A stretch of DNA of 64,000 nt from a virus: the IMG/VR virus record IMGVR_UViG_3300028920_000050, positions 1-64,000 of that record, one strand, 5' to 3'. The notes under the pieces are model-generated. The model made no database searches. It was not told the DNA's origin and was given only the letters and a program-made list of their open reading frames with translations. Shown here piece by piece: positions 42,427 through 54,308 of this stretch. Position numbers and translations under genes: made by a program. Positions within the stretch are counted from its first letter, which is position 1. Each line of letters opens with the position of its first letter.

Positions 42427-42644
42427 GTTTAATTTTTATCAATTTTGTAATATTACAAAAATCCGATACAGTAACCCGGAACCGTGATCCCGGTACTGGA
42501 GATTGAAGGACACCCCCGACGCCGTCAGAGGGTCCGGGTCCCTATGTACTTGAAGCTGAGAACTTTAAAGGATTTAGATTTTAAGTTAGCAATACATAAA
42601 CATATCCAACACACTTTAAAACACACTTTGCAGCACACTCTTAC

Positions 42645-42873
42645 TACTACTCTTATATAGGGTAATGTTAGAGGGCTTTCGGGCCTGGCTCCCGCCGGTT
42701 TTTAAAGCTGTATTATAGGAGCAAAAAATAATTCGGATCTTTGGAAATACAATATATAGCGTGCTTTGAACAATACCTGCTGCATAGAACGCACGTAATA
42801 CAGGATCTTTGTACTACTCTTACTATGTGTACTGTTAGTGTACTTGTTGGGCCGTTCTCCCGCCCGTTTTTAG
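42645..42873. repeat. Imperfect ~60-bp direct repeat pair
   Basis: TACTACTCTTA..TGTTAG..GGGCC...CTCCCGCC.GTTTTTA at about 42645 and 42812. Confidence 0.65.
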
Positions 42874-43186
42874 ATCTTGACACTTAAACAATAATACAAT
42901 GTAAGACCTTACATAATAGGTATGTATACCTATAAAGTATGTCTAAGTGTCAAGTGTTGATCGCTGTCATGATGTGCTTAGAGATCCCGATTATATGCGT
43001 AATACCACTGTGATCATGTTAAATAATAGGGTAGATCTGCTGTGGATCTGAGGGCAATACACTACTACATAGGTCTCTATATAGGGGGCATGTAGAGGGG
43101 TTTACCCGTATTCCCCCGCCCTGGCTACACAGAGGCTTTCTATGGGACGTTCTCAGGGAGGGTCTGCATATTGGGCCTACATACAG

Positions 43187-43230
43187 AAAAACCCTCTGTG
43201 CTGAAGCCGTATAAACAGCACAGAGGGTTT
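43187..43230 (-). terminator. Intrinsic terminator ending the late transcript
   Basis: 15-bp stem AAACCCTCTGTGCTG/CAGCACAGAGGGTTT plus T tract. Confidence 0.75.
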
Positions 43231-43267
43231 CATGAGTGTACCCATAATTAGGAGGAACTTAAATAGC

Positions 43268-43669
43268 CTATCTGCCACGCACCTGTCTTAGAAATATCTG
43301 GTTTCCCTGTGGATTACGTTTACCTATCCTTGGCTTACGCTTACCTGTAGATAAGAAGCTTTCACCAAACCACCCCTCCATTTTTTTGATATAGGCAGTT
43401 CGGCTTTTTATATGAAGCTTCTTTTTATACATGCTTATAGCAAGGTTGGCTTTCTGAGGATCTGTTAAATGCGGATTATAGTAGTACTCGTGTATTCCCT
43501 TGGTGTGTATACCAATATCCTTTCTCAGAGCTTTTACTTTTCCAAGTAACTTTGCTCTTTGATCCCCGCTTAATTTTGCACGTGCCCATCTGTGGGCTTT
43601 ATTTAGAACGTACTTTCTGCCCCGTATAAGCTTAGTCATTCCTACACGGAGCAACTGTTTTTTAGGCAT
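43268..43669 (-). CDS. Basic RWER-motif family protein
   Basis: GMTKLIRGRKYVLNKAHRWAR. Confidence 0.75.
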   Translation of the reverse strand: MPKKQLLRVGMTKLIRGRKYVLNKAHRWARAKLSGDQRAKLLGKVKALRKDIGIHTKGIHEYYYNPHLTDPQKANLAISMYKKKLHIKSRTAYIKKMEGWFGESFLSTGKRKPRIGKRNPQGNQIFLRQVRGR

Positions 43670-43674
43670 TAATA

Positions 43675-44127
43675 TTATGCTTTTCTTTTACGGACAGCTA
43701 TTCTGTGACCAAGACGATTAATTGCTATAGATCCCACAGTGAGAGTAGCCAATGCTGCAATTCCTTTTCCTGATGTCATCAAACCGGCAGATCTTCCTGC
43801 TATCCTCATACTTCTCTGTGCTTTCCTGTACATGGAAGCGCCTTTTATTAAACTGCCTCTTTTAAGCATCCGTTTGGCTTCACCACTCATACGTACTGCA
43901 CGTTTTAACTCAACATGGTGCATAATACGTGCTCCGCTTTCCACTGCCAAATGTGCTCCGCCAGTAATAGCACCAATAGCTCCAACACCTGCAGTTATCC
44001 CACCTGCAAGCTGTCGGCCCACACCAGCACGTTCCCATCTGGATGTTTTACCTAATTTATAGGTTCTTCCTTTTACTGTTTTGGTCATTCCATGTTGAAG
44101 CTTTCGTCTTTGTTTCATACGAGCCAT
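43675..44127 (-). CDS. Basic RWER-motif family protein with hydrophobic helices
   Basis: GMTKTVKGRTYKLGKTSRWER. Confidence 0.75.
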   Translation of the reverse strand: MARMKQRRKLQHGMTKTVKGRTYKLGKTSRWERAGVGRQLAGGITAGVGAIGAITGGAHLAVESGARIMHHVELKRAVRMSGEAKRMLKRGSLIKGASMYRKAQRSMRIAGRSAGLMTSGKGIAALATLTVGSIAINRLGHRIAVRKRKA

Positions 44128-44129
44128 AG

Positions 44130-44477
44130 TTAAGCCCTCCTTCTCTTTATTTTCTTTTTTTCTTTGATAACCATTATAAAACTGGCAATAGCACCAAGGC
44201 TTGTGGCTATCTGCTGTATATAATCAAATATCATTGATACTATTGACTTCTTCTCAGCTGTTGTATTGGTAACACGTGAGTCCCTTCTTGGGCGCCGAGT
44301 TGTCCGATCTGCGGTTGCAGGAGCAGATCTCCTGTATACAAATGTGGAGTTATCAGTTTTAGCTTGTATGGAGAAATTAACAAGTTTCCTTCTTATAAAT
44401 GAAAGTGCAGCAAGAACAATAAATACAATACAGACTGTTGTTAATACTTTTAATTTAATATCTTTTATTTTACGCAC
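44130..44477 (-). CDS. Small membrane protein with two hydrophobic segments
   Basis: VLTTVCIVFIVLAALSFI; IATSLGAIASFIMVI. Confidence 0.6.
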   Translation of the reverse strand: MRKIKDIKLKVLTTVCIVFIVLAALSFIRRKLVNFSIQAKTDNSTFVYRRSAPATADRTTRRPRRDSRVTNTTAEKKSIVSMIFDYIQQIATSLGAIASFIMVIKEKKKIKRRRA

Positions 44478-45012
44478 GTATCCTCCTTCTCCTCGGCCTT
44501 CTGTAATTGGAAGCAGTAAGGTGAGTAGCTATTCCACGTTTCCGCAGATTTTCCATTGTACTTGGTTTCGTATCAAAAGATATACGAGATCCAGGCTTTA
44601 AGTCTCTATTCATCTGTGCAGTAATTAGAGTATTTACTACACCGAGCCTTCTTTCAGAAGCAGCTCTCTCCCGCTTTCTTGCTGACATCTTAACCAAGAG
44701 TCCACTTACAAAAGCACCTGCACTTGTAGCAACTAAAGCCTTGTGTACTTTATAAGGTGCTTTCTTAAGTAACTTTGTTTTCTTACTGAGTGCTAAATAG
44801 CTGGCAGCTAGACCCAAACCAACCATACTCATGCGTTTTCCTAGACGGCCACGACTACTATAATCAAAACCTTCTATGTTCCTCTTACCTGTACGTTCCC
44901 ACCTATAGTTTTTATTCAGTTCATAGGTTATTCCGCTTACTGTTTTCTGTTGACCTATTTTAGCCTTTGCTTCTTTGGCATTTTTTCTGGCTCGTCTCTT
45001 GGTTGTTGGCAT
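44470..45012 (-). CDS. Basic RWER-motif family protein with hydrophobic helices
   Basis: GQQKTVSGITYELNKNYRWER. Confidence 0.75.
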   Translation of the reverse strand: MPTTKRRARKNAKEAKAKIGQQKTVSGITYELNKNYRWERTGKRNIEGFDYSSRGRLGKRMSMVGLGLAASYLALSKKTKLLKKAPYKVHKALVATSAGAFVSGLLVKMSARKRERAASERRLGVVNTLITAQMNRDLKPGSRISFDTKPSTMENLRKRGIATHLTASNYRRPRRRRIRA

Positions 45013-45030
45013 GCACTCCTCCTTAAATTA

Positions 45031-45074
45031 AATGAAAGAGATAAATGTAAGAACTTACATTTATCTCTTTCATT
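45031..45074. repeat. Perfect 21-bp inverted repeat centred on a palindrome variant (GTAAGAACTTAC)
   Basis: AATGAAAGAGATAAATGTAAG-AA-CTTACATTTATCTCTTTCATT. Confidence 0.9.
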
Positions 45075-45314
45075 GTTCTGTCATTGTCGCAGTGACGTTA
45101 TGACATCTTGACAGGGCCGATACCGTTGTGTGCCTTCGGTGCAGGATACTTTCCTTTGTATTTGTCAATCTTATCTTTTGCACCGGGAGCCTTAGACGGA
45201 CCAATCCCATTACGGGCAAGCCCTGGCCGGCCAACCTGGTGTTTCGCACCTTTGTTCTTCGTGTTTTTTGGAAATGTTGCTGCCATAGTTTTCCTCCTGT
45301 TTAATATATTAAAC

Positions 45315-45773
45315 CTATAGTAGTCCGAGTTCTTTTTGAACTCGTTTACGTACACGACCTAGAGCTTCCCTTGTACGTTTAGCCTCAGGTGTATTGACTG
45401 TACCATGTCGTTTGTGTGCCTCGTACACACTACTTAATTTCATATATCTTTTTCTTACTCCCGGATTTACTCGTCTAATCCCCTGCCTGAAAGATGACTT
45501 GGCCCTTACAGTAACTTTACGAGTAGACAATATAGCAAGTGTAATAAAACCAGCAGTAATAGCTGCACCCTTGGCATACGCTTTAAGCCTCATTCTTCTT
45601 CTGTATTTTTCATAACTTATGGTTGGACCGGAAAAATATGCAGACTCTTTTAGCGGAACCTTTATATAATCTCTTTCCCATCTTGAAGTACGACCAAGTT
45701 TATACCTCTTTCCTCTAACTGTTTTTGTAGCCCCTGGTCTTATACGTTTTTGATCATACTTCTTTCTTGCCAT
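45315..45773 (-). CDS. Basic RWER-motif family protein
   Basis: GATKTVRGKRYKLGRTSRWER; hydrophobic GAAITAGFITLAIL. Confidence 0.75.
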   Translation of the reverse strand: MARKKYDQKRIRPGATKTVRGKRYKLGRTSRWERDYIKVPLKESAYFSGPTISYEKYRRRMRLKAYAKGAAITAGFITLAILSTRKVTVRAKSSFRQGIRRVNPGVRKRYMKLSSVYEAHKRHGTVNTPEAKRTREALGRVRKRVQKELGLL

Positions 45774-45792
45774 AATGAAATCCAGATATTAA

Positions 45793-46227
45793 TTATTTAT
45801 TTCTTTTTCTTCGTTTATATGTAGAGTGTGCGATCTTTGTAGTAACAGCTGTACCTAATGCTACAGCCACACCTTTCTTACCGTGTTTAGCAATAGCTTT
45901 GCTTAGGGGCTTACTGGCTTTTCGTATAGCTGCTCCTGCTCTGCTTATTGTTTTACTTGCTTTACCTGCCTTATGAGAACTACTCTCTACTCTTTTACCG
46001 AAGCGTTTAACCTCTTCGCCAGCTTTCTTCCCCGCAGTTTTAAAACCGCGGTCTACTGCTTTGTTTAGACCTTTAGCCTTACCGACTGCTCCTGTCTTTT
46101 GTACCTTGACCCACCGCACAACTCCTTTGCGGATCTCTGTCAAACGGAGCATAGCACCAGCTGCTCCTTTCTTCATAGCACCGATTTTCTGGCCGGCAGC
46201 TTTCTTTATTCTTTTCATTCTTGCCAT
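45793..46227 (-). CDS. Lys/Ala-rich basic protein, divergent family member
   Basis: GAMKK...LRL...RWVK; shares the MARMK start with 43675..44127. Confidence 0.6.
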   Translation of the reverse strand: MARMKRIKKAAGQKIGAMKKGAAGAMLRLTEIRKGVVRWVKVQKTGAVGKAKGLNKAVDRGFKTAGKKAGEEVKRFGKRVESSSHKAGKASKTISRAGAAIRKASKPLSKAIAKHGKKGVAVALGTAVTTKIAHSTYKRRKRNK

Positions 46228-46249
46228 TTGTTATCTCCTGTTTTTTATA

Positions 46250-47158
46250 TTAACGCTCTCTTCGCTGATACTCATAATCACGAAGAGCACGTTCAGTGTA
46301 ATACCGTCTTTCCATAAGTGTTTTACGTATCCTATAGTATGTAATGCCAGATAGAATACCTAAAGCAACTCCGTAAGTAGGTCTCTTTTGTATAAACTTA
46401 AGACCAGATAAAGCAGAGTTATTAAAATGATATGTAAATCGTTTTGCTCCCCGGAACTGAAATCCCATCTTATTACCTATGGGAACCTTCTTCGCCAAAG
46501 CCTGAGCCATAGTTTTAGTTCTGGTTATTTTCTGTGCTCTTTTTATCTGATTTAGATGTAATGACTGCAGTGGCTTGGCTACCCTGGCTGTCATGTTAGA
46601 TATTCCCTGATGAACTGTTTTCCAAGGTTTAGACTTACGTATTCTATCAAGCTCAAGAACTTTAACAAGATTATTACGGAAGCCACCAAATCCTGTACCT
46701 CTCCTTCCCTTCCGTCCAATACTTACAGCTGCACCATAGATACTACCAACTACCCACAGACTCCTCTCCCTCCTGGTTAAAGCCGCACGCTTGAACATAT
46801 AATCTTCACGTAATTCTGATTTTGTTTTTCCGTGGTATGTCTTTACAGCAGATACTCTCTTTAGTCCCTTAACTGCTTCTGGATTACCTGGAGTTTCTTT
46901 GAAGAAATCTGATTTTGGATTTTTATGAATAAAACCTGACCTGTCCTCTGCTACACTTACAAGATCCTGCTGTTCTTTTGGACGGACAATAGGAGGTGCA
47001 TGATCCTCCATTACTGGAGGTTTATTATTTGGAAGCCTGTAGTCACGTTCCCACCTGTGGGATCTCCGCCTGAGTTTGTACCTTAGACCTTTTATAAATC
47101 TTATTGTTCCCAGCCTGGGTTCTTCTTTCTTTTTTGTTCGCTTCCTACCATTTGACAT
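46250..47158 (-). CDS. Basic RWER-motif family protein (long)
   Basis: GTIRFIKGLRYKLRRRSHRWERDY. Confidence 0.75.
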   Translation of the reverse strand: MSNGRKRTKKKEEPRLGTIRFIKGLRYKLRRRSHRWERDYRLPNNKPPVMEDHAPPIVRPKEQQDLVSVAEDRSGFIHKNPKSDFFKETPGNPEAVKGLKRVSAVKTYHGKTKSELREDYMFKRAALTRRERSLWVVGSIYGAAVSIGRKGRRGTGFGGFRNNLVKVLELDRIRKSKPWKTVHQGISNMTARVAKPLQSLHLNQIKRAQKITRTKTMAQALAKKVPIGNKMGFQFRGAKRFTYHFNNSALSGLKFIQKRPTYGVALGILSGITYYRIRKTLMERRYYTERALRDYEYQRRER

Positions 47159-47273
47159 ACAGACTCCTTGCTAATGTAAGATCTTACATTCAGTTAATAA
47201 AATGGGGTTCTTCGTGCAGGACAGCGTTATATAATACGGATCGTCTTACTATTATTATAATGTAAAATCTCAA

Positions 47274-48308
47274 TTATTTCAAATTAAATCTCCTCTTTAT
47301 AATCGAAGATCCCTCTTTTAGCGTATGAAATCCACCATATACGCTCTGGTAATTTACAATAAAATCAATATACCTGTGCCTAAGCTTCTCATCTATGGGC
47401 CTGTTCAAGTAGTCATTTATGATAAATGATATATCATCTATGTACCCCACCTCTTTATAGTTAACAGACGGTATCCGATAACCAAGCCCAAGCGGAGTAA
47501 CTACCGGCAAATTACTGAAGTACAGTACTTTCTTATTACTGAGTATGGCTTCAGCCAGGGAGGATGAATTGAAAGACACAACTATCTGTGCTTCTCGTAT
47601 GTGTGTAAAATGATTTGCATTTTTATTAAACACAACTCGCTTGTCTTTAATAGGCACATAGTCATAAGTGAATCCACGCTTTTTATTATAGGCACTTGGA
47701 TGTGGTTTCACCACCAGAATAAAATCAGTATAAATATTTTTTATTATATTAAATACTGTGCGAACCATATCATTTGCTCTGTAAGGGTGTCCACCAACAG
47801 ATGTAATTGATTTATCTGTTGATTTCTGTAGTGGAAAATAAATAAGGGGTACTTTGTAGTTAGCCAAGGTCCCGTTCTTGTCATTATTATGTGCTACCCA
47901 ATGCAGTTCAAACAAACTCACAAGCTTGTTTACTTTATACGGATAATTATTGAATGTCATATCCGTAGTATGACTGTTGAACATAGACATAGGAGCAAGC
48001 AGAGATCCACAATACTTATTATGATCCTGCCTGTCAATAAACTGATTGAACCTGAATGGTGACCTTTCAACAAATAGCATATTTCTGTAAGTACTCTTTT
48101 TCATCAAGTCTACAAAAGATGATGGTATATTTCCTTTCTGATTGAAGAACTTTTTATAACACAAGTATCTATTCTTCTTCCCCTTATCCTTTAAATAAAT
48201 AGAATAGAAGTCATCAGTTGATACGTGTTCTATTTTTAAACCGAGTGGTTTAAGGTACGTATCAATTATATTGAACTCACAATTATAGATATTAGAATAT
48301 ACTTTCAT
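47274..48308 (-). CDS. KpsS/KpsC-like (Capsule_synth) glycosyltransferase
   Basis: YFPLQ...D, VVKPHP, VVSFNSS...EA. Confidence 0.7.
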   Translation of the reverse strand: MKVYSNIYNCEFNIIDTYLKPLGLKIEHVSTDDFYSIYLKDKGKKNRYLCYKKFFNQKGNIPSSFVDLMKKSTYRNMLFVERSPFRFNQFIDRQDHNKYCGSLLAPMSMFNSHTTDMTFNNYPYKVNKLVSLFELHWVAHNNDKNGTLANYKVPLIYFPLQKSTDKSITSVGGHPYRANDMVRTVFNIIKNIYTDFILVVKPHPSAYNKKRGFTYDYVPIKDKRVVFNKNANHFTHIREAQIVVSFNSSSLAEAILSNKKVLYFSNLPVVTPLGLGYRIPSVNYKEVGYIDDISFIINDYLNRPIDEKLRHRYIDFIVNYQSVYGGFHTLKEGSSIIKRRFNLK

Positions 48309-49339
48309 AAGCCTAACTTCTTAACAAGAAAAATCTTAAGATCTTTTCTTGCTGTAAAATTGTTAAAGAAAGACATCTCATTGATTATAAAATAAACATA
48401 CTTGTTGTACGCTTCAGTATCTATATCTGTCATAAGATAGTCTCTTATAACCATAGCATTTTCATTTAGAAACCTCCCACCCGCATAATTCCATGACGGT
48501 ACTCGGTATCCTATATCATTACAGTCCACTACAGGCATGTTTGAGAAATATAATATCTTTTTATGAAGAAGTGCTGCTTCTGCTAAAGCAGATGAATTAA
48601 AACTCACAACTACTTTGGCTGCAGTGAGCAGTGCATAGTGTGATATGGAACTTGTAGTTATAACACGATTATCATCAAAATCAAATATATATTTATAGTT
48701 TCCTCTATGGTACGGATGCTCACGCACTACAATAACAAAATCATTGTACATACGTGCAAACAATTTATAGATGACATTTATCATCTCATTAACAGGATAG
48801 GTCTCTGCTCCTCTGGATCTGAGTGATATATCCTGTGGTAATTGTAGCGGAAGGTAAACAAGGTTTCTTGTTTTTGGTATGTCTCCTGTGTCTTTATTTA
48901 AACCTAACCAGTGCTTCCTGAACCTTGACACAGTAGCATTCATGTCAGCTTTATATGTGAACTTATTGAACTTATGTAAATTACTATAATTCACAAAAGA
49001 ACTTATGTTGGCAAGCATTACTCCGCAGTTCCTGGAATTAATATTATCATCAGTTCCCTGTTTAAAACGAAATGGTGGTTTCTCAATAAAAAGTAAATGT
49101 CTAAAATCATCGAGCCTGAAAATCTCCCTGAAGTGATCGTAGGTCTTTACTTTAGTTCCATGCAGGAAGGTCTTACCCATTACATACATGTTTTCTTTGT
49201 CCTTGGCAGCTCTCCTATACAAATCCTCCCCCGCCGGCGGACGTTCAATGTCAACAGGCAACTTCAGTCTCTTAACATTACGTTCTAAGAGAGTGGCCTC
49301 CTCACTCTCTGAGTATATCATTATAAGCTTTTTCTTCAT
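48305..49339 (-). CDS. KpsS/KpsC-like glycosyltransferase, paralog
   Basis: YLPLQ..QD, VVREHP, VVSFNSS...EA. Confidence 0.7.
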   Translation of the reverse strand: MKKKLIMIYSESEEATLLERNVKRLKLPVDIERPPAGEDLYRRAAKDKENMYVMGKTFLHGTKVKTYDHFREIFRLDDFRHLLFIEKPPFRFKQGTDDNINSRNCGVMLANISSFVNYSNLHKFNKFTYKADMNATVSRFRKHWLGLNKDTGDIPKTRNLVYLPLQLPQDISLRSRGAETYPVNEMINVIYKLFARMYNDFVIVVREHPYHRGNYKYIFDFDDNRVITTSSISHYALLTAAKVVVSFNSSALAEAALLHKKILYFSNMPVVDCNDIGYRVPSWNYAGGRFLNENAMVIRDYLMTDIDTEAYNKYVYFIINEMSFFNNFTARKDLKIFLVKKLGL

Positions 49340-49914
49340 TCAGCCACCTGACACACATACAACCTGTACGAATAATGTCTAGGATTAGGATGTCTCTGAT
49401 TTATTTCGTATCTCTTTATGAGACCAATCCTGTTAACAAGCTCAAGCATGCTGTCAACAGTTATATTAAAATGTTTATGATAATGATTTCTCATCTTAGT
49501 TTCATTGTCAGGATGTGAGAATATAACAAGACCACCTGGTTTAACACTGTTCTTAAATAAGAATAAAGTGCTCTCAAGTGATCTATCAAGATGTTCAATA
49601 GTTTCGAGAGAAACAACAGCATCGAAACCACCATTACCTATCCTTCCCTTTACCTTATTTAGATCTACAACATCATAAGCTATGGCTTTACTATGATTGA
49701 AATGCTTAATAGCGTGACTTATTGCTTCCTTGGAGTTATCAATACCAACAACACTTCTGGCTGTCTCAGCAAGTATTGTGCTTCCGTATCCTACTCCACA
49801 TGCAGCATCAAGTACGTGCATGCCTCTACAAAATGAGCTGGCAATATAATACCTCTCCTTGTGTAGCTTCTCTATTTTTTCAAGTGCTGTTGCATCCTGT
49901 CTTTCTCTGGCCAT
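49336..49914 (-). CDS. Class I SAM-dependent methyltransferase
   Basis: H..RY, VLDAACGVGYG, FDAVVSLETIEHL. Confidence 0.9.
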   Translation of the reverse strand: MARERQDATALEKIEKLHKERYYIASSFCRGMHVLDAACGVGYGSTILAETARSVVGIDNSKEAISHAIKHFNHSKAIAYDVVDLNKVKGRIGNGGFDAVVSLETIEHLDRSLESTLFLFKNSVKPGGLVIFSHPDNETKMRNHYHKHFNITVDSMLELVNRIGLIKRYEINQRHPNPRHYSYRLYVCQVAE

Positions 49915-49915
49915 G

Positions 49916-50929
49916 TTACCTCACTCTCATATCTGCCTTGATCAGATCTCGACCATCATAAAACTTTGTACCAGTAAACGGCTTAAAAGTATAGTGACCC
50001 ATGATCTTCATCTTTCCTTTATTCCTGTGTATAAAAGCACGTGTAAGTTTCCTGTCCTCTTCTGTCTCCCCCGGAAGTTTAAACATAAAAGAAGCGCCTA
50101 CAGTTAGATTTATACTGTTACAAATATCGACTACTCTCTGATGATTTGCTACTGTAGTTCGTTTATTGAGAAGTTTAAGCATACGGTCACTACCACTCTC
50201 CGCCCCGAACCTGACACTGCTAAACCCCATTTCCTTCATCATAATAGCAATTTCCTTATCGAAATTACTAGACCGAATAAATCCTCTGAGTGAAAAGCGT
50301 CTATTATAATCACGGAACATCCACATCTCGTGGATTTCCCGCAACCTCTTCTTATTAAATACGAATAAATCATCAAGTATGTATATTTCTTTTGCTTGAG
50401 GTTCTGTTCTTCTTATGAACTCTACCTCATCAATAAAGTAATCGGAGCTGTGAAACCTGACCTTTTTCCAAAAAACAGAACTGCTACAAAAATGACAGTC
50501 ATAGGGACACCCTCTCGCACTGATAATAGGAATAGACTTACCACACTTTCCTCTTATTGGGTATGGTAAATCATCTATGTTATCAATCTGTCCCGCCAAG
50601 GGATTAAATCTGCCATCAATTAAAGATTGAAACGGAAGTTCACCTTCTCCCTTTACAACATAATCAAAGCCTATATTATCGATCTTGGGCCACTGAGTTC
50701 CTTGACCACCTACACACACAGGTATATCTGTACTATTTAATATTTCATAAGCCTCCTTCATTCCGTGGTCATTGGTATACAGTCCTATCAAATCACAGTT
50801 ATTAAGTTTATTCCTATCCTGTACAATGGTTATCTTTGCTCCCTTACTGTAAGCAGCAAGGTAGCCTAAACCTAGAGGGTATTGAGATACTGGTCTCTCT
50901 CCCCCACACATGTACAGTTTTATTTTCAT
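49916..50929 (-). CDS. B12-binding radical SAM enzyme
   Basis: PLGLGYLAA, VGG, GEGE, RGCPYDCHFC, GAESGS. Confidence 0.9.
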   Translation of the reverse strand: MKIKLYMCGGERPVSQYPLGLGYLAAYSKGAKITIVQDRNKLNNCDLIGLYTNDHGMKEAYEILNSTDIPVCVGGQGTQWPKIDNIGFDYVVKGEGELPFQSLIDGRFNPLAGQIDNIDDLPYPIRGKCGKSIPIISARGCPYDCHFCSSSVFWKKVRFHSSDYFIDEVEFIRRTEPQAKEIYILDDLFVFNKKRLREIHEMWMFRDYNRRFSLRGFIRSSNFDKEIAIMMKEMGFSSVRFGAESGSDRMLKLLNKRTTVANHQRVVDICNSINLTVGASFMFKLPGETEEDRKLTRAFIHRNKGKMKIMGHYTFKPFTGTKFYDGRDLIKADMRVR

Positions 50930-51411
50930 TTTGTTGCTTTTAGTTCAATGTCACACTCACGGCAATTAATAAGTTCAGTTACCTTAAAACCATTCACATT
51001 AAAAAACTCAACTAAAGATTTAGATGTATAGCCCCAATAATGATAGTAGTTCTCTCCCTTTCTCTGCCACCCAAAAAAAGCAGCCATAGCATGTTCAAAG
51101 TTACTGGCCTTTACAAATGGAGACTTCCCTGGCATGAGTAACTGCTTGGCATGGAACTCAAGATTAGGAACAATAACGTGTATAATACCCTTGGGCATGA
51201 GTACACGTCTCCATTCTTTTAGCGTGATGATAGCTAAGTCAGGAGTTAAATGCTCCAGAAAATGACGAGCATATATCTCCTCAAATGTGTCTGCTTCTTC
51301 AGGAATCTTCCACGCAGGATAGGGATACTCAACGTGTAGTGCTTTAGGATCTATATCAAGGTGCTGGTATCCCTCTCTCGGTTTCTTCCCTGAACCTATT
51401 TCAAGTTTCAT
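50926..51411 (-). CDS. SAM-dependent methyltransferase (type 11-like)
   Basis: KLEIGSG, IYARHFLEHL, EWRRVL.P.G....VP. Confidence 0.85.
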   Translation of the reverse strand: MKLEIGSGKKPREGYQHLDIDPKALHVEYPYPAWKIPEEADTFEEIYARHFLEHLTPDLAIITLKEWRRVLMPKGIIHVIVPNLEFHAKQLLMPGKSPFVKASNFEHAMAAFFGWQRKGENYYHYWGYTSKSLVEFFNVNGFKVTELINCRECDIELKATK

Positions 51412-51704
51412 CCTATTGCTCGTTTAAGTATTTCCTTAGCTTGAGATTTGTTTGCGCAGATGTATTTATCGTTATAACTTTTTCCGTCCCCGACCTGCAG
51501 ACCTTTCTTGTTCATCTTGGGCGGAATGTAACCAGAGACTGTAGCTATAACTCCGTTCTTCGCCTTATCAATGCTGAAGTTACTGTGCTCCATAGGTCGC
51601 TTTGTAACTCTCGGTATCTTTATACTTGGAGAGATTTTACTGATACCTGCCGAAACTCCTCTGCTCATTTTTCTTTTAGCCATTTTGTTTTCCTCCTATT
51701 AAAT

Positions 51705-51734
51705 AAGGAGAGCCAAGTTTCCCTGGCTCTCCTT
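51705..51734 (-). terminator. Intrinsic terminator-like hairpin
   Basis: AAGGAGAGCCA/TGGCTCTCCTT stem. Confidence 0.55.
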
Positions 51735-51772
51735 TGTGATTAGTACCTTATTATATTTTTATTATTGTAAAA

Positions 51773-52234
51773 TCACTCCAACTGAACATACCCAGGCACG
51801 CAGGTAATCCATCCGGTTGATCCATTTTGGAGTTTAACTTCATACTTTTCTACGGTGTACTCAAGTATTTTAAGTACAGCCCCAGGTAGCATAAAGCCTA
51901 TTTTGTTTTTATCATTTTTAGCAGGGGAGCCTCTTATAACACAACCTTCACCATTTATAGTACCGGTCTCACCGGTCTTATCAACGTCAAGGTATGTACT
52001 ATAAACCCACCCCGTCTTACCTATCCACTTACTTCCTTTTTCAACGGTCCCCTTATAATAACCGATCTTCTCACCGACAACTTCAAACTCCTCACCGGGA
52101 GCGGCGGTCCTGATTAACTCAGCACCATTGTCGGGAGCGTTACGGATATTAATATGCTTCACGATCCGCAGGTTCTCCGTATAAAGGAAGCTTGTGAATA
52201 AAATAAGCACAATGAATGTAGTTATTTTTTTCAT
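51773..52234 (-). CDS. Secreted SH3b-domain protein
   Basis: Signal peptide; NIR..P, GWVYS.YL, TGWI. Confidence 0.75.
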   Translation of the reverse strand: MKKITTFIVLILFTSFLYTENLRIVKHINIRNAPDNGAELIRTAAPGEEFEVVGEKIGYYKGTVEKGSKWIGKTGWVYSTYLDVDKTGETGTINGEGCVIRGSPAKNDKNKIGFMLPGAVLKILEYTVEKYEVKLQNGSTGWITCVPGYVQLE

Positions 52235-52379
52235 CTTTTTTTCCTCTTGTTGGATTTTTTATGAGGACTTTTGTATCCACTCGCATGAGCTGCCCTCTGG
52301 ATTTGAAGTGCTTTTGCTTTTGTTTTGAAAGGGCCACGTGACCCCCAATACCATCCGTTTGCTTTTTTAACTACCGGCA

Positions 52380-52568
52380 TTATTTCATTCTCCCTATGGG
52401 TCCTCTCCCTTTTCCCACACCAAGTCCCATTCCTCTCCCCCTACTCCTTATTTTACCTCCGGGGCAACACTCCCATCTGTGATTTTTATTTAAACGATAT
52501 AACTTATTATTAATCCTTTTAGTAGTTCCTACTTTAAGTCTAATATCTTTGTGTTTATTTCTAAGCAT
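52380..52568 (-). CDS. Minimal RWER-motif family protein
   Basis: GTTKRINNKLYRLNKNHRWE plus a Gly/Arg-rich tail. Confidence 0.65.
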   Translation of the reverse strand: MLRNKHKDIRLKVGTTKRINNKLYRLNKNHRWECCPGGKIRSRGRGMGLGVGKGRGPIGRMK

Positions 52569-52580
52569 AACTTCTCCTTA

Positions 52581-54308
52581 CTATTTTACTCTCTCATATA
52601 CTGATGTCGGAGCACGAGAAAGCTTTCTACCAAAAGCATCCCTCTCATCTCTCACGACTGTTTGAACTGGACCTCTACGTCTGAAATCATTAACTACCAG
52701 TTCTTCATTCTTGATCTCTTCTACCTCTCCCATTTCTGGAATATAGGCTGCCCAGGTCATAAGGCTGAGACCATCAAAATAGTCATCGTGTGCACCCTTG
52801 CGCTCCGGGTGGGCGCAGACAATATATTGATTTTTAGTTTTCTTCTCGATAGTTACTACTTCCTTGGCAAGTTCCTTTACCTCTTTATCTACTCGTGCTG
52901 TTCTACTCCACGGTATCCATACACGTCCGCCCTTCATTTCAACAATAAGGTTCTTGGCAAGTTTACTCTTCATGGGTATGCTGTATACAATGGGTTCCAT
53001 CTCCATTTCGTATTCATACTTATTTACAAACCTGTCACCTATGGCATCCCCTACACCAGTACTATCGTATGCCATCTTTATAGGTATTCCACGTGACTCT
53101 CTTATAAAGTCATCAATGACATCACAGATTTCATAAAACTGAGTATCATAGTCTGTTCCTCGCCAAGAATAAATACCTAACACCTGCTTAGGTGGGGCAA
53201 TAGTAAGATCTACTCTCAAGTTCCAGTGCTTAGTTCCTATAACAAGTACTGTCTTGTCGTCCTTCTTGGCAAAGTCCAAGCCGAAGTACAGTTCTGCTCC
53301 ACGCTTAACTACATGCCACCCAAGTTCAAGCTCTGTTTTCTTGTTCTTGTTAAGCATCTTGTCATCAATAGCCATCCCGCCTTCAAACAGCCATTTAAGA
53401 CAGTAAGACTTCTGGAACTCGTCACTGTCCTCACCAAGTTCTTTCTTCTTTTTATCTATGTACGCTTTATAGTATGGGTTCTCGCGGATACCATCTTTGT
53501 AGTCAGACACAAAGGTACATCTTTTATATCCCCTCACTTTCTTTCTTCGGGCCTCTCCATTGGTAATAAGCTTCCAGAACTTGTTCTTTGTTTCTCCCGC
53601 CACACCAAAAAAGAACTCAGAAGCGTTCCACGCAGCACCCATAGGTGAAGCATCAGCATCATAACGAGCAGTGTCTATGTCTTGCGCTTCATCATATTGA
53701 AGTACTTTAAACGTACCAGACTCTACTTTTGCCTGTGGGTGCAGTGAGTACCACTGCATAATAGATCCGTTTGTAAGTTTTATCTTGTCATTTATTTTAC
53801 GCTTGCCTACGTTGATAGCTTTATCAGCCATTATCATCTCAGCATATTCAGTCTCAAGGATCTTATACGTACCTTCCCACACTGCAAGTGCTTGGTACTC
53901 GATGTTAGACATGTGACCTATCCACACACCGTTATTTTTTGGAAAATCAGGATTATAAAACTTAAGAAGTGGTTTGTGTACTGTATGAAAAAGCTTTGCT
54001 ATGATTGGAATGAACAGCATAGCTGCGGCATCAAGGGACCTGAACAGCTCAGTCTTACCTCTCTGCCTTGAGAAAGAAATACCAACAGATGCCGGCTCAT
54101 CGTTAAGCAGGATCTCAAAGAACCTGTAAGCTATCTTTTTTTGGAGGGGGTAAAGATAAGGAAGTCCACTGAACTGCTCTGTTACCGTGACAAGTCTGTC
54201 ACATATCTCTCCAAGATTGAACTTCGTTATTTTAATTCGATCTTTTAAGACATATTGTTCATCATCAGTCAGTGCTTCTTTCATGTCAGCTACATCAGAT
54301 TGCTTCAT
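52581..54308 (-). CDS. terL: Terminase large subunit
   Basis: SRQRGKT Walker A, YDEAQ Walker B, GLDFAK, DSTGVG, HDD nuclease motifs. Confidence 0.9.
   Translation of the reverse strand: MKQSDVADMKEALTDDEQYVLKDRIKITKFNLGEICDRLVTVTEQFSGLPYLYPLQKKIAYRFFEILLNDEPASVGISFSRQRGKTELFRSLDAAAMLFIPIIAKLFHTVHKPLLKFYNPDFPKNNGVWIGHMSNIEYQALAVWEGTYKILETEYAEMIMADKAINVGKRKINDKIKLTNGSIMQWYSLHPQAKVESGTFKVLQYDEAQDIDTARYDADASPMGAAWNASEFFFGVAGETKNKFWKLITNGEARRKKVRGYKRCTFVSDYKDGIRENPYYKAYIDKKKKELGEDSDEFQKSYCLKWLFEGGMAIDDKMLNKNKKTELELGWHVVKRGAELYFGLDFAKKDDKTVLVIGTKHWNLRVDLTIAPPKQVLGIYSWRGTDYDTQFYEICDVIDDFIRESRGIPIKMAYDSTGVGDAIGDRFVNKYEYEMEMEPIVYSIPMKSKLAKNLIVEMKGGRVWIPWSRTARVDKEVKELAKEVVTIEKKTKNQYIVCAHPERKGAHDDYFDGLSLMTWAAYIPEMGEVEEIKNEELVVNDFRRRGPVQTVVRDERDAFGRKLSRAPTSVYERVK

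Follow-up and report, generated by a model that had tools for sequence, protein, structure and literature searches.

The capsid-targeting sequence of the phage T4 internal proteins is a signal of about ten residues that is confined to its lineage and is cut off by the prohead protease. It forms a short N-terminal sequence shared by diverse cargo (PMC9024508), and this cargo is injected together with the DNA. In phage P1, the first 30 residues of DarB suffice to load a TetR-mCherry reporter protein into the head (PMC9024508). In phiKZ, gp93 and gp162 attach to the inner capsid through N-terminal regions, which are severed from the inner-body domains (PMC11297242). Here we describe a short N-terminal tag common to six small proteins of a myovirus, encoded in the first 64,000 bases (hereafter the window) of the 101,394-bp IMG/VR virus record IMGVR_UViG_3300028920_000050, and the module of about 25 residues of which this tag is an instance. 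The module is a variation on the known logic of capsid targeting and of polyvalent proteins, and it is apparently an undescribed mini-domain of phage head-associated conflict proteins.

Open reading frames (ORFs) were listed across 42-54 kb of the window and all six frames were scanned with a regular expression. Six ORFs, all on the minus strand, begin with a Lys/Arg-rich leader followed by G-x-x-[KR]-x-[VIL]-x-[GN]-x-x-Y-x-L-x(4-5)-[RH]-W-x-[RC]. These six are the only matches to the pattern in all six frames of the whole record, and 200 residue shuffles give an expectation of 0.0 matches to the full pattern. The ORF list, the scan and the shuffles bear out an earlier reading of the window, made without database searches (the sequence-only reading), which had reported the shared leader and tag. 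The divergent seventh carrier that it added at 45793 (p144) did not survive scrutiny, scoring -1.4 bits against an independent profile built without p144, like unrelated neighbours. Separately, a basic protein of 91 aa (51408-51683, minus strand) has a weak half-match to the start of the module (L-Q-V-G-D-G-K-S-Y, residues 56-73, 7.7 bits), which may be a degenerate copy or chance.

Over the 21-residue core the six tags share 43-76% amino-acid identity and 44-68% nucleotide identity, and many identical core residues use different codons; the copies are therefore old. Pfam, PHROGs and NCBIfam hold no family for the tag or for the bodies, and searches of the same three databases recognised no domain beyond the tag. 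Nor is any mutual similarity detectable among the six bodies. The proteins (62-302 aa) are very basic, with isoelectric points of 11.2-12.0, net charges of +17 to +49 and a tag-core charge of +2 to +8. Gly/Ala-rich hydrophobic segments are present in p150, p152 and p180, and the two segments of p150 (residues 40-62 and 116-140) are glycine-zipper-like. The description of these bodies as otherwise unrelated, very basic and in several cases hydrophobic in part was therefore accurate.

The operon recurs, with its gene order kept, on a 2,969-bp metagenome contig (L119) of a related phage, and there comprises a tagged 295-aa protein, a small untagged ORF, an orthologue of the tagged p180 N-terminus and orthologues of p115, p150 and p133. 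Tag and body identities between window proteins and their L119 orthologues are 73 and 31% (p133 and its 132-aa orthologue), 79 and 23%, and 65 and 8%. Since the tag is kept while the bodies diverge, selection holds the tag and the bodies drift, keeping only their composition. The untagged p115 is 43% identical to its L119 orthologue. In the corresponding position L119 has a 67-aa ORF with 51% identity to the untagged small ORF of the window, which is therefore a real gene. The body of p302 has an orthologue in P0039 (E 2e-18), and p150 has orthologues in P0007 and in a 161-aa protein of L119. Similar post-tag residues, compared by eye, make P0051 a likely orthologue of p62 and P0048 a likely orthologue of p133.

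The tag extends far beyond this pair of operons. A word-based homologue search returned one outside protein only, and an exhaustive HMMER search was needed to find the rest. With the tag profile this search of 1.84 billion representative proteins identified 92 significant carriers, 22 of them at E <=1e-10, in which the module is joined to ART-PolyVal, Ntox46, Zeta, HipA-like and DarB-like units. A motif-profile search for fused domains was the check proposed with the sequence-only reading. The consensus from carriers is [LM]-x-[PV]-G-x-T-K-x-x-N-G-x-x-Y-x-L-N-x-N-H-R-W-E-[RL], about 25 residues. A degenerate DNA pattern retrieved 51 IMG/VR loci, and the same pattern matched metagenome-assembled and other genomes of Ignavibacteriota, Planctomycetota, Bacteroidota, Cyanobacteria, Deinococcota, Bacillota and others; the window-type tag pattern found no match in the viral contig collection. 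Between phages whose head proteins are unrelated in sequence the module is ~50-60% identical. The tag is demonstrably an autonomous, ancient and portable module heading otherwise unrelated cargo of tailed-phage proteins, and not a leader private to one family.

Two sets of matches were rejected as homologues. DNA-pattern matches in Pasteurellaceae and Photobacterium (L064, L068 and ~20 other loci) are FadL/OmpP1-like outer-membrane barrels that contain only the hairpin T-Y-x-L-N-E-N-H-R-W-G-L-A-Y, a convergent beta-hairpin and not a case of homology. Matches to phosphoglycerate mutase are chance hairpins.

Cultured phages lack the module almost entirely. The sole one found with a copy is Bordetella phage PHB04, whose variant V-G-D-T-K-V-V-D-G-V-T-Y-I-L-Q-G-R-P-P-R-W-H-R-V has a longer second loop. 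It occupies residues 646-675 of a protein of 2,097 aa that is annotated 'N-6 DNA methylase' (MF663786.1 26262-32555) and encoded a few genes downstream of the portal gene. A short-query tblastn search of cultured phages and plasmids gave no genuine copy, but it is insensitive and missed the PHB04 variant too. No paper reporting a virion proteome for PHB04 was found. This phage is a practical entry point for experiments.

AlphaFold, given an alignment of 73 sequences, predicts a three-stranded antiparallel beta-meander with a core pLDDT (predicted local distance difference test score) of 82-84. The strands fall at residues 16-19, 22-26 and 32-34 in the N-terminus of p152, and the meander is predicted to place the invariant Tyr on strand 2 and the invariant Arg-Trp on strand 3. 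The ESM Atlas yielded no match at >=0.9 and no structural match at TM >=0.5, and a fold search with the module model gave Z <=2.3 throughout. The consensus and the predicted fold bring the WW domain to mind: both are three-stranded meanders, and both show the motifs LxPG ahead of strand 1, G-[KR]-x-Y in strand 2 and W-E-R in strand 3. The tandem WW domains of PRPF40A were among the top matches of a profile search of the PDB, at a non-significant E of 0.14. WW domains are meanders of about 30-40 residues with two signature Trp about 20-22 residues apart and a closing Pro. The module conserves only the second Trp, with T or D in place of the first, has no conserved Pro after it and has shorter loops; Pfam gives no WW match and the fold search lists no WW entry. 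Cell-wall and choline-binding repeats (CW_binding_1, the clostridial combined repetitive oligopeptides) are tandem arrays of ~20-residue GW...YY hairpins, whereas copies of the module are single and isolated. These repeats give no Pfam match and PDB profile E values of only 0.7-4.4. The resemblances to WW domains, cell-wall repeats, phosphoglycerate mutase and FadL are analogies, not memberships.

In carriers of up to 400 aa the module starts within the first 36 residues in 32 of 37 cases. The bodies of these small proteins are polycationic with hydrophobic helices (as in the window), acidic, or effectors, namely Zeta toxin, HipA-like kinase and Ntox46. The remaining carriers have 600 to ~3,600 aa and one to four copies of the module. 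They contain ART-PolyVal, Ntox46 or the DarB-like arrangement InPase-DUF6908-N6-methylase-[module]-SNF2 helicase, in which the module is internal, ~100-250 residues past the matched methylase region and before the helicase. Every copy in a multi-copy protein precedes a distinct segment or a duplicated module-plus-cargo unit, and the building block is therefore [module + cargo]. The giant carriers are polyvalent proteins as described by Iyer et al. (PMC5512222). ART-PolyVal, Ntox46, Zeta, HipA-like kinase and InPase with the DarB-like N6-methylase-SNF2 unit are all cargo types thought to be injected by phages (PMC5512222).

Three proteins of uncultured phages (L024:2098-3759, L072:1952-3718, L042:535-2844) combine the module with Phage_Mu_F (SPP1 gp7 family) in a single chain, and two of them read [module]-[ART-PolyVal]-[MuF]. 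This order is the reverse of that in classic MuF toxins, the MuF domain being C-terminal in the fusions. Gene neighbourhoods agree with such a setting. At the IMG/VR loci the recurrent neighbours are a MuF-like minor head protein (13 loci), a Ulx-like anti-restriction protein (8), the portal (6), a family with only a weak PHROG match to head maturation protease (5) and the major head protein (3). In four of the five bacterial genomes examined the carrier lies inside a head module that runs portal, MuF-like protein, giant protein, Ulx-like protein; the type IV coupling-protein genes of those genomes are on other contigs. Carriers are firmly tied to phage heads. That a modular tag sits on diverse cargo of the injected type is strongly supported, and not for this phage alone.

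How the module relates to described systems can now be stated. The resemblance to the T4 internal proteins is that of a short N-terminal element common to otherwise unrelated small basic proteins of a myovirus. The module differs in being a folded beta unit of ~25 residues, as predicted, in being conserved across phyla and in occurring internally and in multiple copies. No tagged protein matches the PHROG or Pfam families of internal head proteins, and the T4 targeting sequence is too short for a profile test. With the P1 Dar system (DarB, Ulx, DarA, Hdf, DdrB; PMC9024508) the link is through cargo, as DarB relatives are major carriers; these methylase-SNF2 polyvalent proteins are followed by a Ulx-like gene and adjoin the portal gene. 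Homology of the module to the P1 DarB signal was considered and rejected, as the module hidden Markov model (HMM) finds nothing in translated darB. The P1 signal is N-terminal, whereas the module of DarB-like carriers lies between methylase and helicase. The phiKZ proteins gp93 and gp162 are likewise paralogues that attach to the inner capsid surface by their N-terminal regions and otherwise form internal or ejected material; they show no sequence similarity to the module, their N-terminal regions are cleaved off, and the module model compared with a phiKZ capsid fragment gives Z 2.3, which is noise level.

Polyvalent proteins and MuF polymorphic toxins (PMC5512222, PMC5576092) offer the same cargo repertoire in the same head-module context, and the module is a part of such proteins. 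Neither paper has it among the domains of its main text, and text searches gave no mention of it, probably because cultured phages nearly all lack it. The window proteins differ from polyvalent proteins in being small, with a single, non-enzymatic cargo that is basic or hydrophobic. The polyvalent architecture of at least two disparate effector domains per chain is found in many relatives and in none of the window's six.

The setting of the tagged genes in the window is summarised in Table 1. All genes of the setting lie on the minus strand. The large terminase gene (terL) has no close relatives in IMG/VR, and p62 begins 12 nt downstream of it. Beyond p62 come a gene for an SH3 protein, then a modification cassette (47274-51411) of two methyltransferases, a B12-radical S-adenosylmethionine (SAM) protein and two KpsS/KpsC-like transferases, and then the tagged operon (47158-43268). 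The operon is downstream of terL, yet ~45 kb separate it from the genes for the portal and the major head protein, which lie with the sheath and tape measure genes at roughly 80-98 kb of the genome. A beta-helix fibre gene is present within 56-64 kb; the lysis cassette there is placed by the sequence-only reading alone. To judge from its putative promoter and terminator, the tagged operon is a self-contained transcription unit, separate from the modification cassette. The terminator hairpin was read directly, as an automated scan missed it owing to its loop length.

Table 1. Position of the tagged genes and of neighbouring features in the window, in the order of transcription.
Feature	Position	Strand	Remarks
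Large terminase (terL), context marker	52581..54308	-	tblastn matches to annotated terminases
p62, tagged Gly/Arg-rich mini-protein	52380..52568	-	tag core residues 14-34, nt 52467-52529
Putative sigma70-like promoter before operon, TTGAAA-17-TATAAT	47254..47282	-	11/12 consensus matches; consensus match only
Palindrome TGTAAGATCTTACA	47175..47188		between operon promoter and p302 ribosome-binding site
p302, tagged basic protein, first operon gene	46250..47158	-	tag core residues 17-38, nt 47045-47110
p144, basic Gly/Ala/Lys-rich operon member	45793..46227	-	module carriage not demonstrable
p152, tagged basic protein	45315..45773	-	tag core residues 14-34, nt 45672-45734; hydrophobic segment ~63-89
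Untagged small ORF, ~63 aa	45098..45289	-	Gly/Pro/Lys-rich, repeated NGIGP-like motifs; fills 300-nt 'gap' of the operon
p180, tagged basic protein	44470..45012	-	tag core residues 20-40, nt 44893-44955; hydrophobic segment ~89-111
p115, untagged basic membrane-type protein, conserved	44130..44477	-	strong N-terminal hydrophobic helix
p150, tagged basic protein	43675..44127	-	tag core residues 13-33, nt 44029-44091
p133, tagged basic protein, last operon gene	43268..43669	-	tag core residues 10-30, nt 43580-43642
Intrinsic-terminator-like hairpin closing operon, just after p133	43185..43232	-	15-bp stem, 13-nt loop, T-rich tail

The sequence-only reading assigned the tagged genes to a late region downstream of terL. 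The location and the common strand are as it stated; late timing is not thereby shown, as the operon has a sigma70-like promoter of its own. The palindrome in front of p302 was considered as a marker of early genes and rejected, since TGTAAGATCTTACA and its variants occur genome-wide, including upstream of terL and of the major head protein gene. There are ~40 copies of this 12-14-bp palindrome, (T)GTAA[GT]AT[CA]TTAC(A), across the record, mostly intergenic and densest in 1-42 kb. Examples are at 47175, 54328 and 63676 of the window and at 91739 and 98588 of the genome. The tagged operon, terL and the major head protein gene each have a copy in front of them, and a variant is found at 45046, upstream of p180. 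Being genome-wide, the palindrome is uninformative on the timing of the operon.

Other features of the record deserve mention in their own right. Between the operon terminator and a strong promoter at 42426-42399 lie ~750 bp (42430-43185) with no convincing ORF, with G+C-rich hairpins and with a palindrome variant at 42900. This region could be an origin, a packaging site or an RNA gene; no Rfam family was found within 41-55 kb. Besides the modification cassette, a gene resembling GT9 heptosyltransferases is located among the head and tail genes (L008:5915-7291, genome ~89915-91291), and the phage may glycosylate its own virion or alter glycans of the host. Immediately behind the portal gene lies an 846-aa ORF (L008:9719-12259, genome ~93719-96259) with no Pfam or PHROG family and no module; the slot it holds is the usual place of MuF or polyvalent proteins.

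We tentatively propose that the module is a head-loading or head-retention handle that marks phage-head passengers, a reading that we think quite possible while rating it somewhat short of an even chance. Support for it is good, though indirect, and comes from (i) the portable, N-terminal position of the module; (ii) cargo of the injected type; (iii) the head-module context of its carriers; (iv) its fusion to MuF; (v) the precedents of T4, P1 and phiKZ. In the course of prohead assembly the handle would bind to a feature, conserved in structure, of the head interior or the portal region, thereby loading the cargo or holding it in the head until it exits with the DNA. The cargo of this phage would be the six small polycationic proteins, of which several have hydrophobic helices of the glycine-zipper type. 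These six, and with them two untagged operon proteins (membrane-type or small), would be internal or ejection proteins, which may neutralise DNA charge, insert into the host envelope at infection, or both. In other phages the same handle would carry enzymes and toxins, one handle for each cargo unit. A bolder version would make the WW-like meander of ~25 residues a near-universal address label across phage lineages, read by a conserved feature of head or portal, such that fusion to it would suffice for a protein to be packaged in the capsid and delivered; this we regard as doubtful. The sequence-only reading had called the tag a modular addressing signal. Its modularity is borne out, as the same module heads Zeta, HipA-like, Ntox46, ART-PolyVal and DarB-like units; the other half of the claim, that the tag itself directs encapsidation, is one that we infer.

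Several observations weigh against a head-loading handle. There is no direct evidence of any module-bearing protein in a virion, and cultured phages are nearly all devoid of the module. Searches by BLAST and HMM found no conserved phage-encoded receptor gene, nor any MuF-like, Ulx-like or portal-type partner shared between this phage and other carriers, and the module is kept across phages with heads unrelated in sequence. To our knowledge, known targeting signals are specific to their lineages, which the module is not. It is internal in the DarB-like proteins, and P1 DarB, the sole relative with a mapped signal, lacks it. MuF is already a head-incorporation domain and should suffice, so that the proteins in which MuF and module coexist should not need a second such device. 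Late expression is not established, because the operon promoter is sigma70-like. Finally, carrier P0010 also has RadC, which among polyvalent proteins was found only in those of conjugative elements (Iyer et al., PMC5512222).

Some of these points would be expected if the module acted after injection, docking the delivered proteins on a universal feature of the recipient, for instance a conserved host machine or the surface of the inner membrane where entry takes place. Conservation across phyla with no conserved phage partner suits a universal target, the coexistence with MuF means that head incorporation is possibly already supplied, and the invariant Arg-Trp and Tyr are typical of interfacial or ligand-binding residues. 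In the window family and its relatives the tag is succeeded, only a few residues on, by a hydrophobic helix, which also speaks for such docking. Yet envelopes differ greatly among the hosts, which extend from Planctomycetota to Bacillota and Cyanobacteria, and it is hard to name one target for methylase-helicases, kinases, ADP-ribosyltransferases (ARTs) and small basic proteins; we consider such docking rather unlikely. We give less credence again to the module as a small beta-sheet that binds nucleic acid and keeps the proteins tied to the phage DNA, possibly to a DNA end, for the two to travel together. DNA-binding domains built on three-stranded beta-sheets exist, the window copies are highly cationic in their tag cores, and in DarB-like proteins the module is placed between a DNA methylase and a DNA translocase. 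The charge is not a general property, as 65 instances from other elements have a mean core charge of only +1.5, with a mean of -2.1 over the next 15 residues. By established mechanism, DNA-bound proteins are barred from entry at the portal during packaging, and many of the cargos (ART, Zeta, HipA-like) act on proteins rather than DNA. A generic nucleic-acid-binding hairpin had been named as one finding that would overturn the sequence-only reading, and the charge data weaken that objection.

The module could also be purely structural, an oligomerisation unit or a marker of domain boundaries or processing in polyproteins, with no addressing role and with its N-terminal position a relic of gene fission or fusion. 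Copies do lie at the boundaries of cargo units in giant proteins, and in the predicted model a lone three-stranded sheet would expose a hydrophobic face that could pair with a second copy. However, a scan of 31 large or clustered carriers found no peptidase domain, proteases cut poorly within folded beta units, and polar residues (T, K, N, N, H, R, E) are strongly conserved, which suggests recognition of a ligand over self-packing alone. We hold this explanation to be improbable. What remains is a role for the tag as a leader read by the adjacent modification cassette, in the style of precursors of ribosomally synthesised and post-translationally modified peptides (RiPPs). It would account for a conserved leader on hypervariable bodies beside a radical SAM and methyltransferase cluster. 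It seems scarcely credible given that the module occurs at more than 50 phage loci whose recurrent neighbours are head genes and include no radical SAM or methyltransferase enzymes, that the bodies have 30-270 aa and are not short cores, and that cassette and operon are predicted to be separate transcription units.

The choice of capsid passengers is understood for only a few model phages, each with its private signal. If the module is a head-loading handle, it would, for the first time, offer a candidate for a general label of passengers, found on toxins, ADP-ribosyltransferases, anti-restriction enzymes and polycationic proteins. It would then help to predict injected effectors from sequence alone, and the construction of polyvalent proteins from [handle + cargo] units would be explained. 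Fused to foreign proteins, such a handle would also be a portable means of loading them into phage particles. Whatever its role, the module is a domain that lacks annotation, is easy to recognise and flags a large class of phage conflict proteins.

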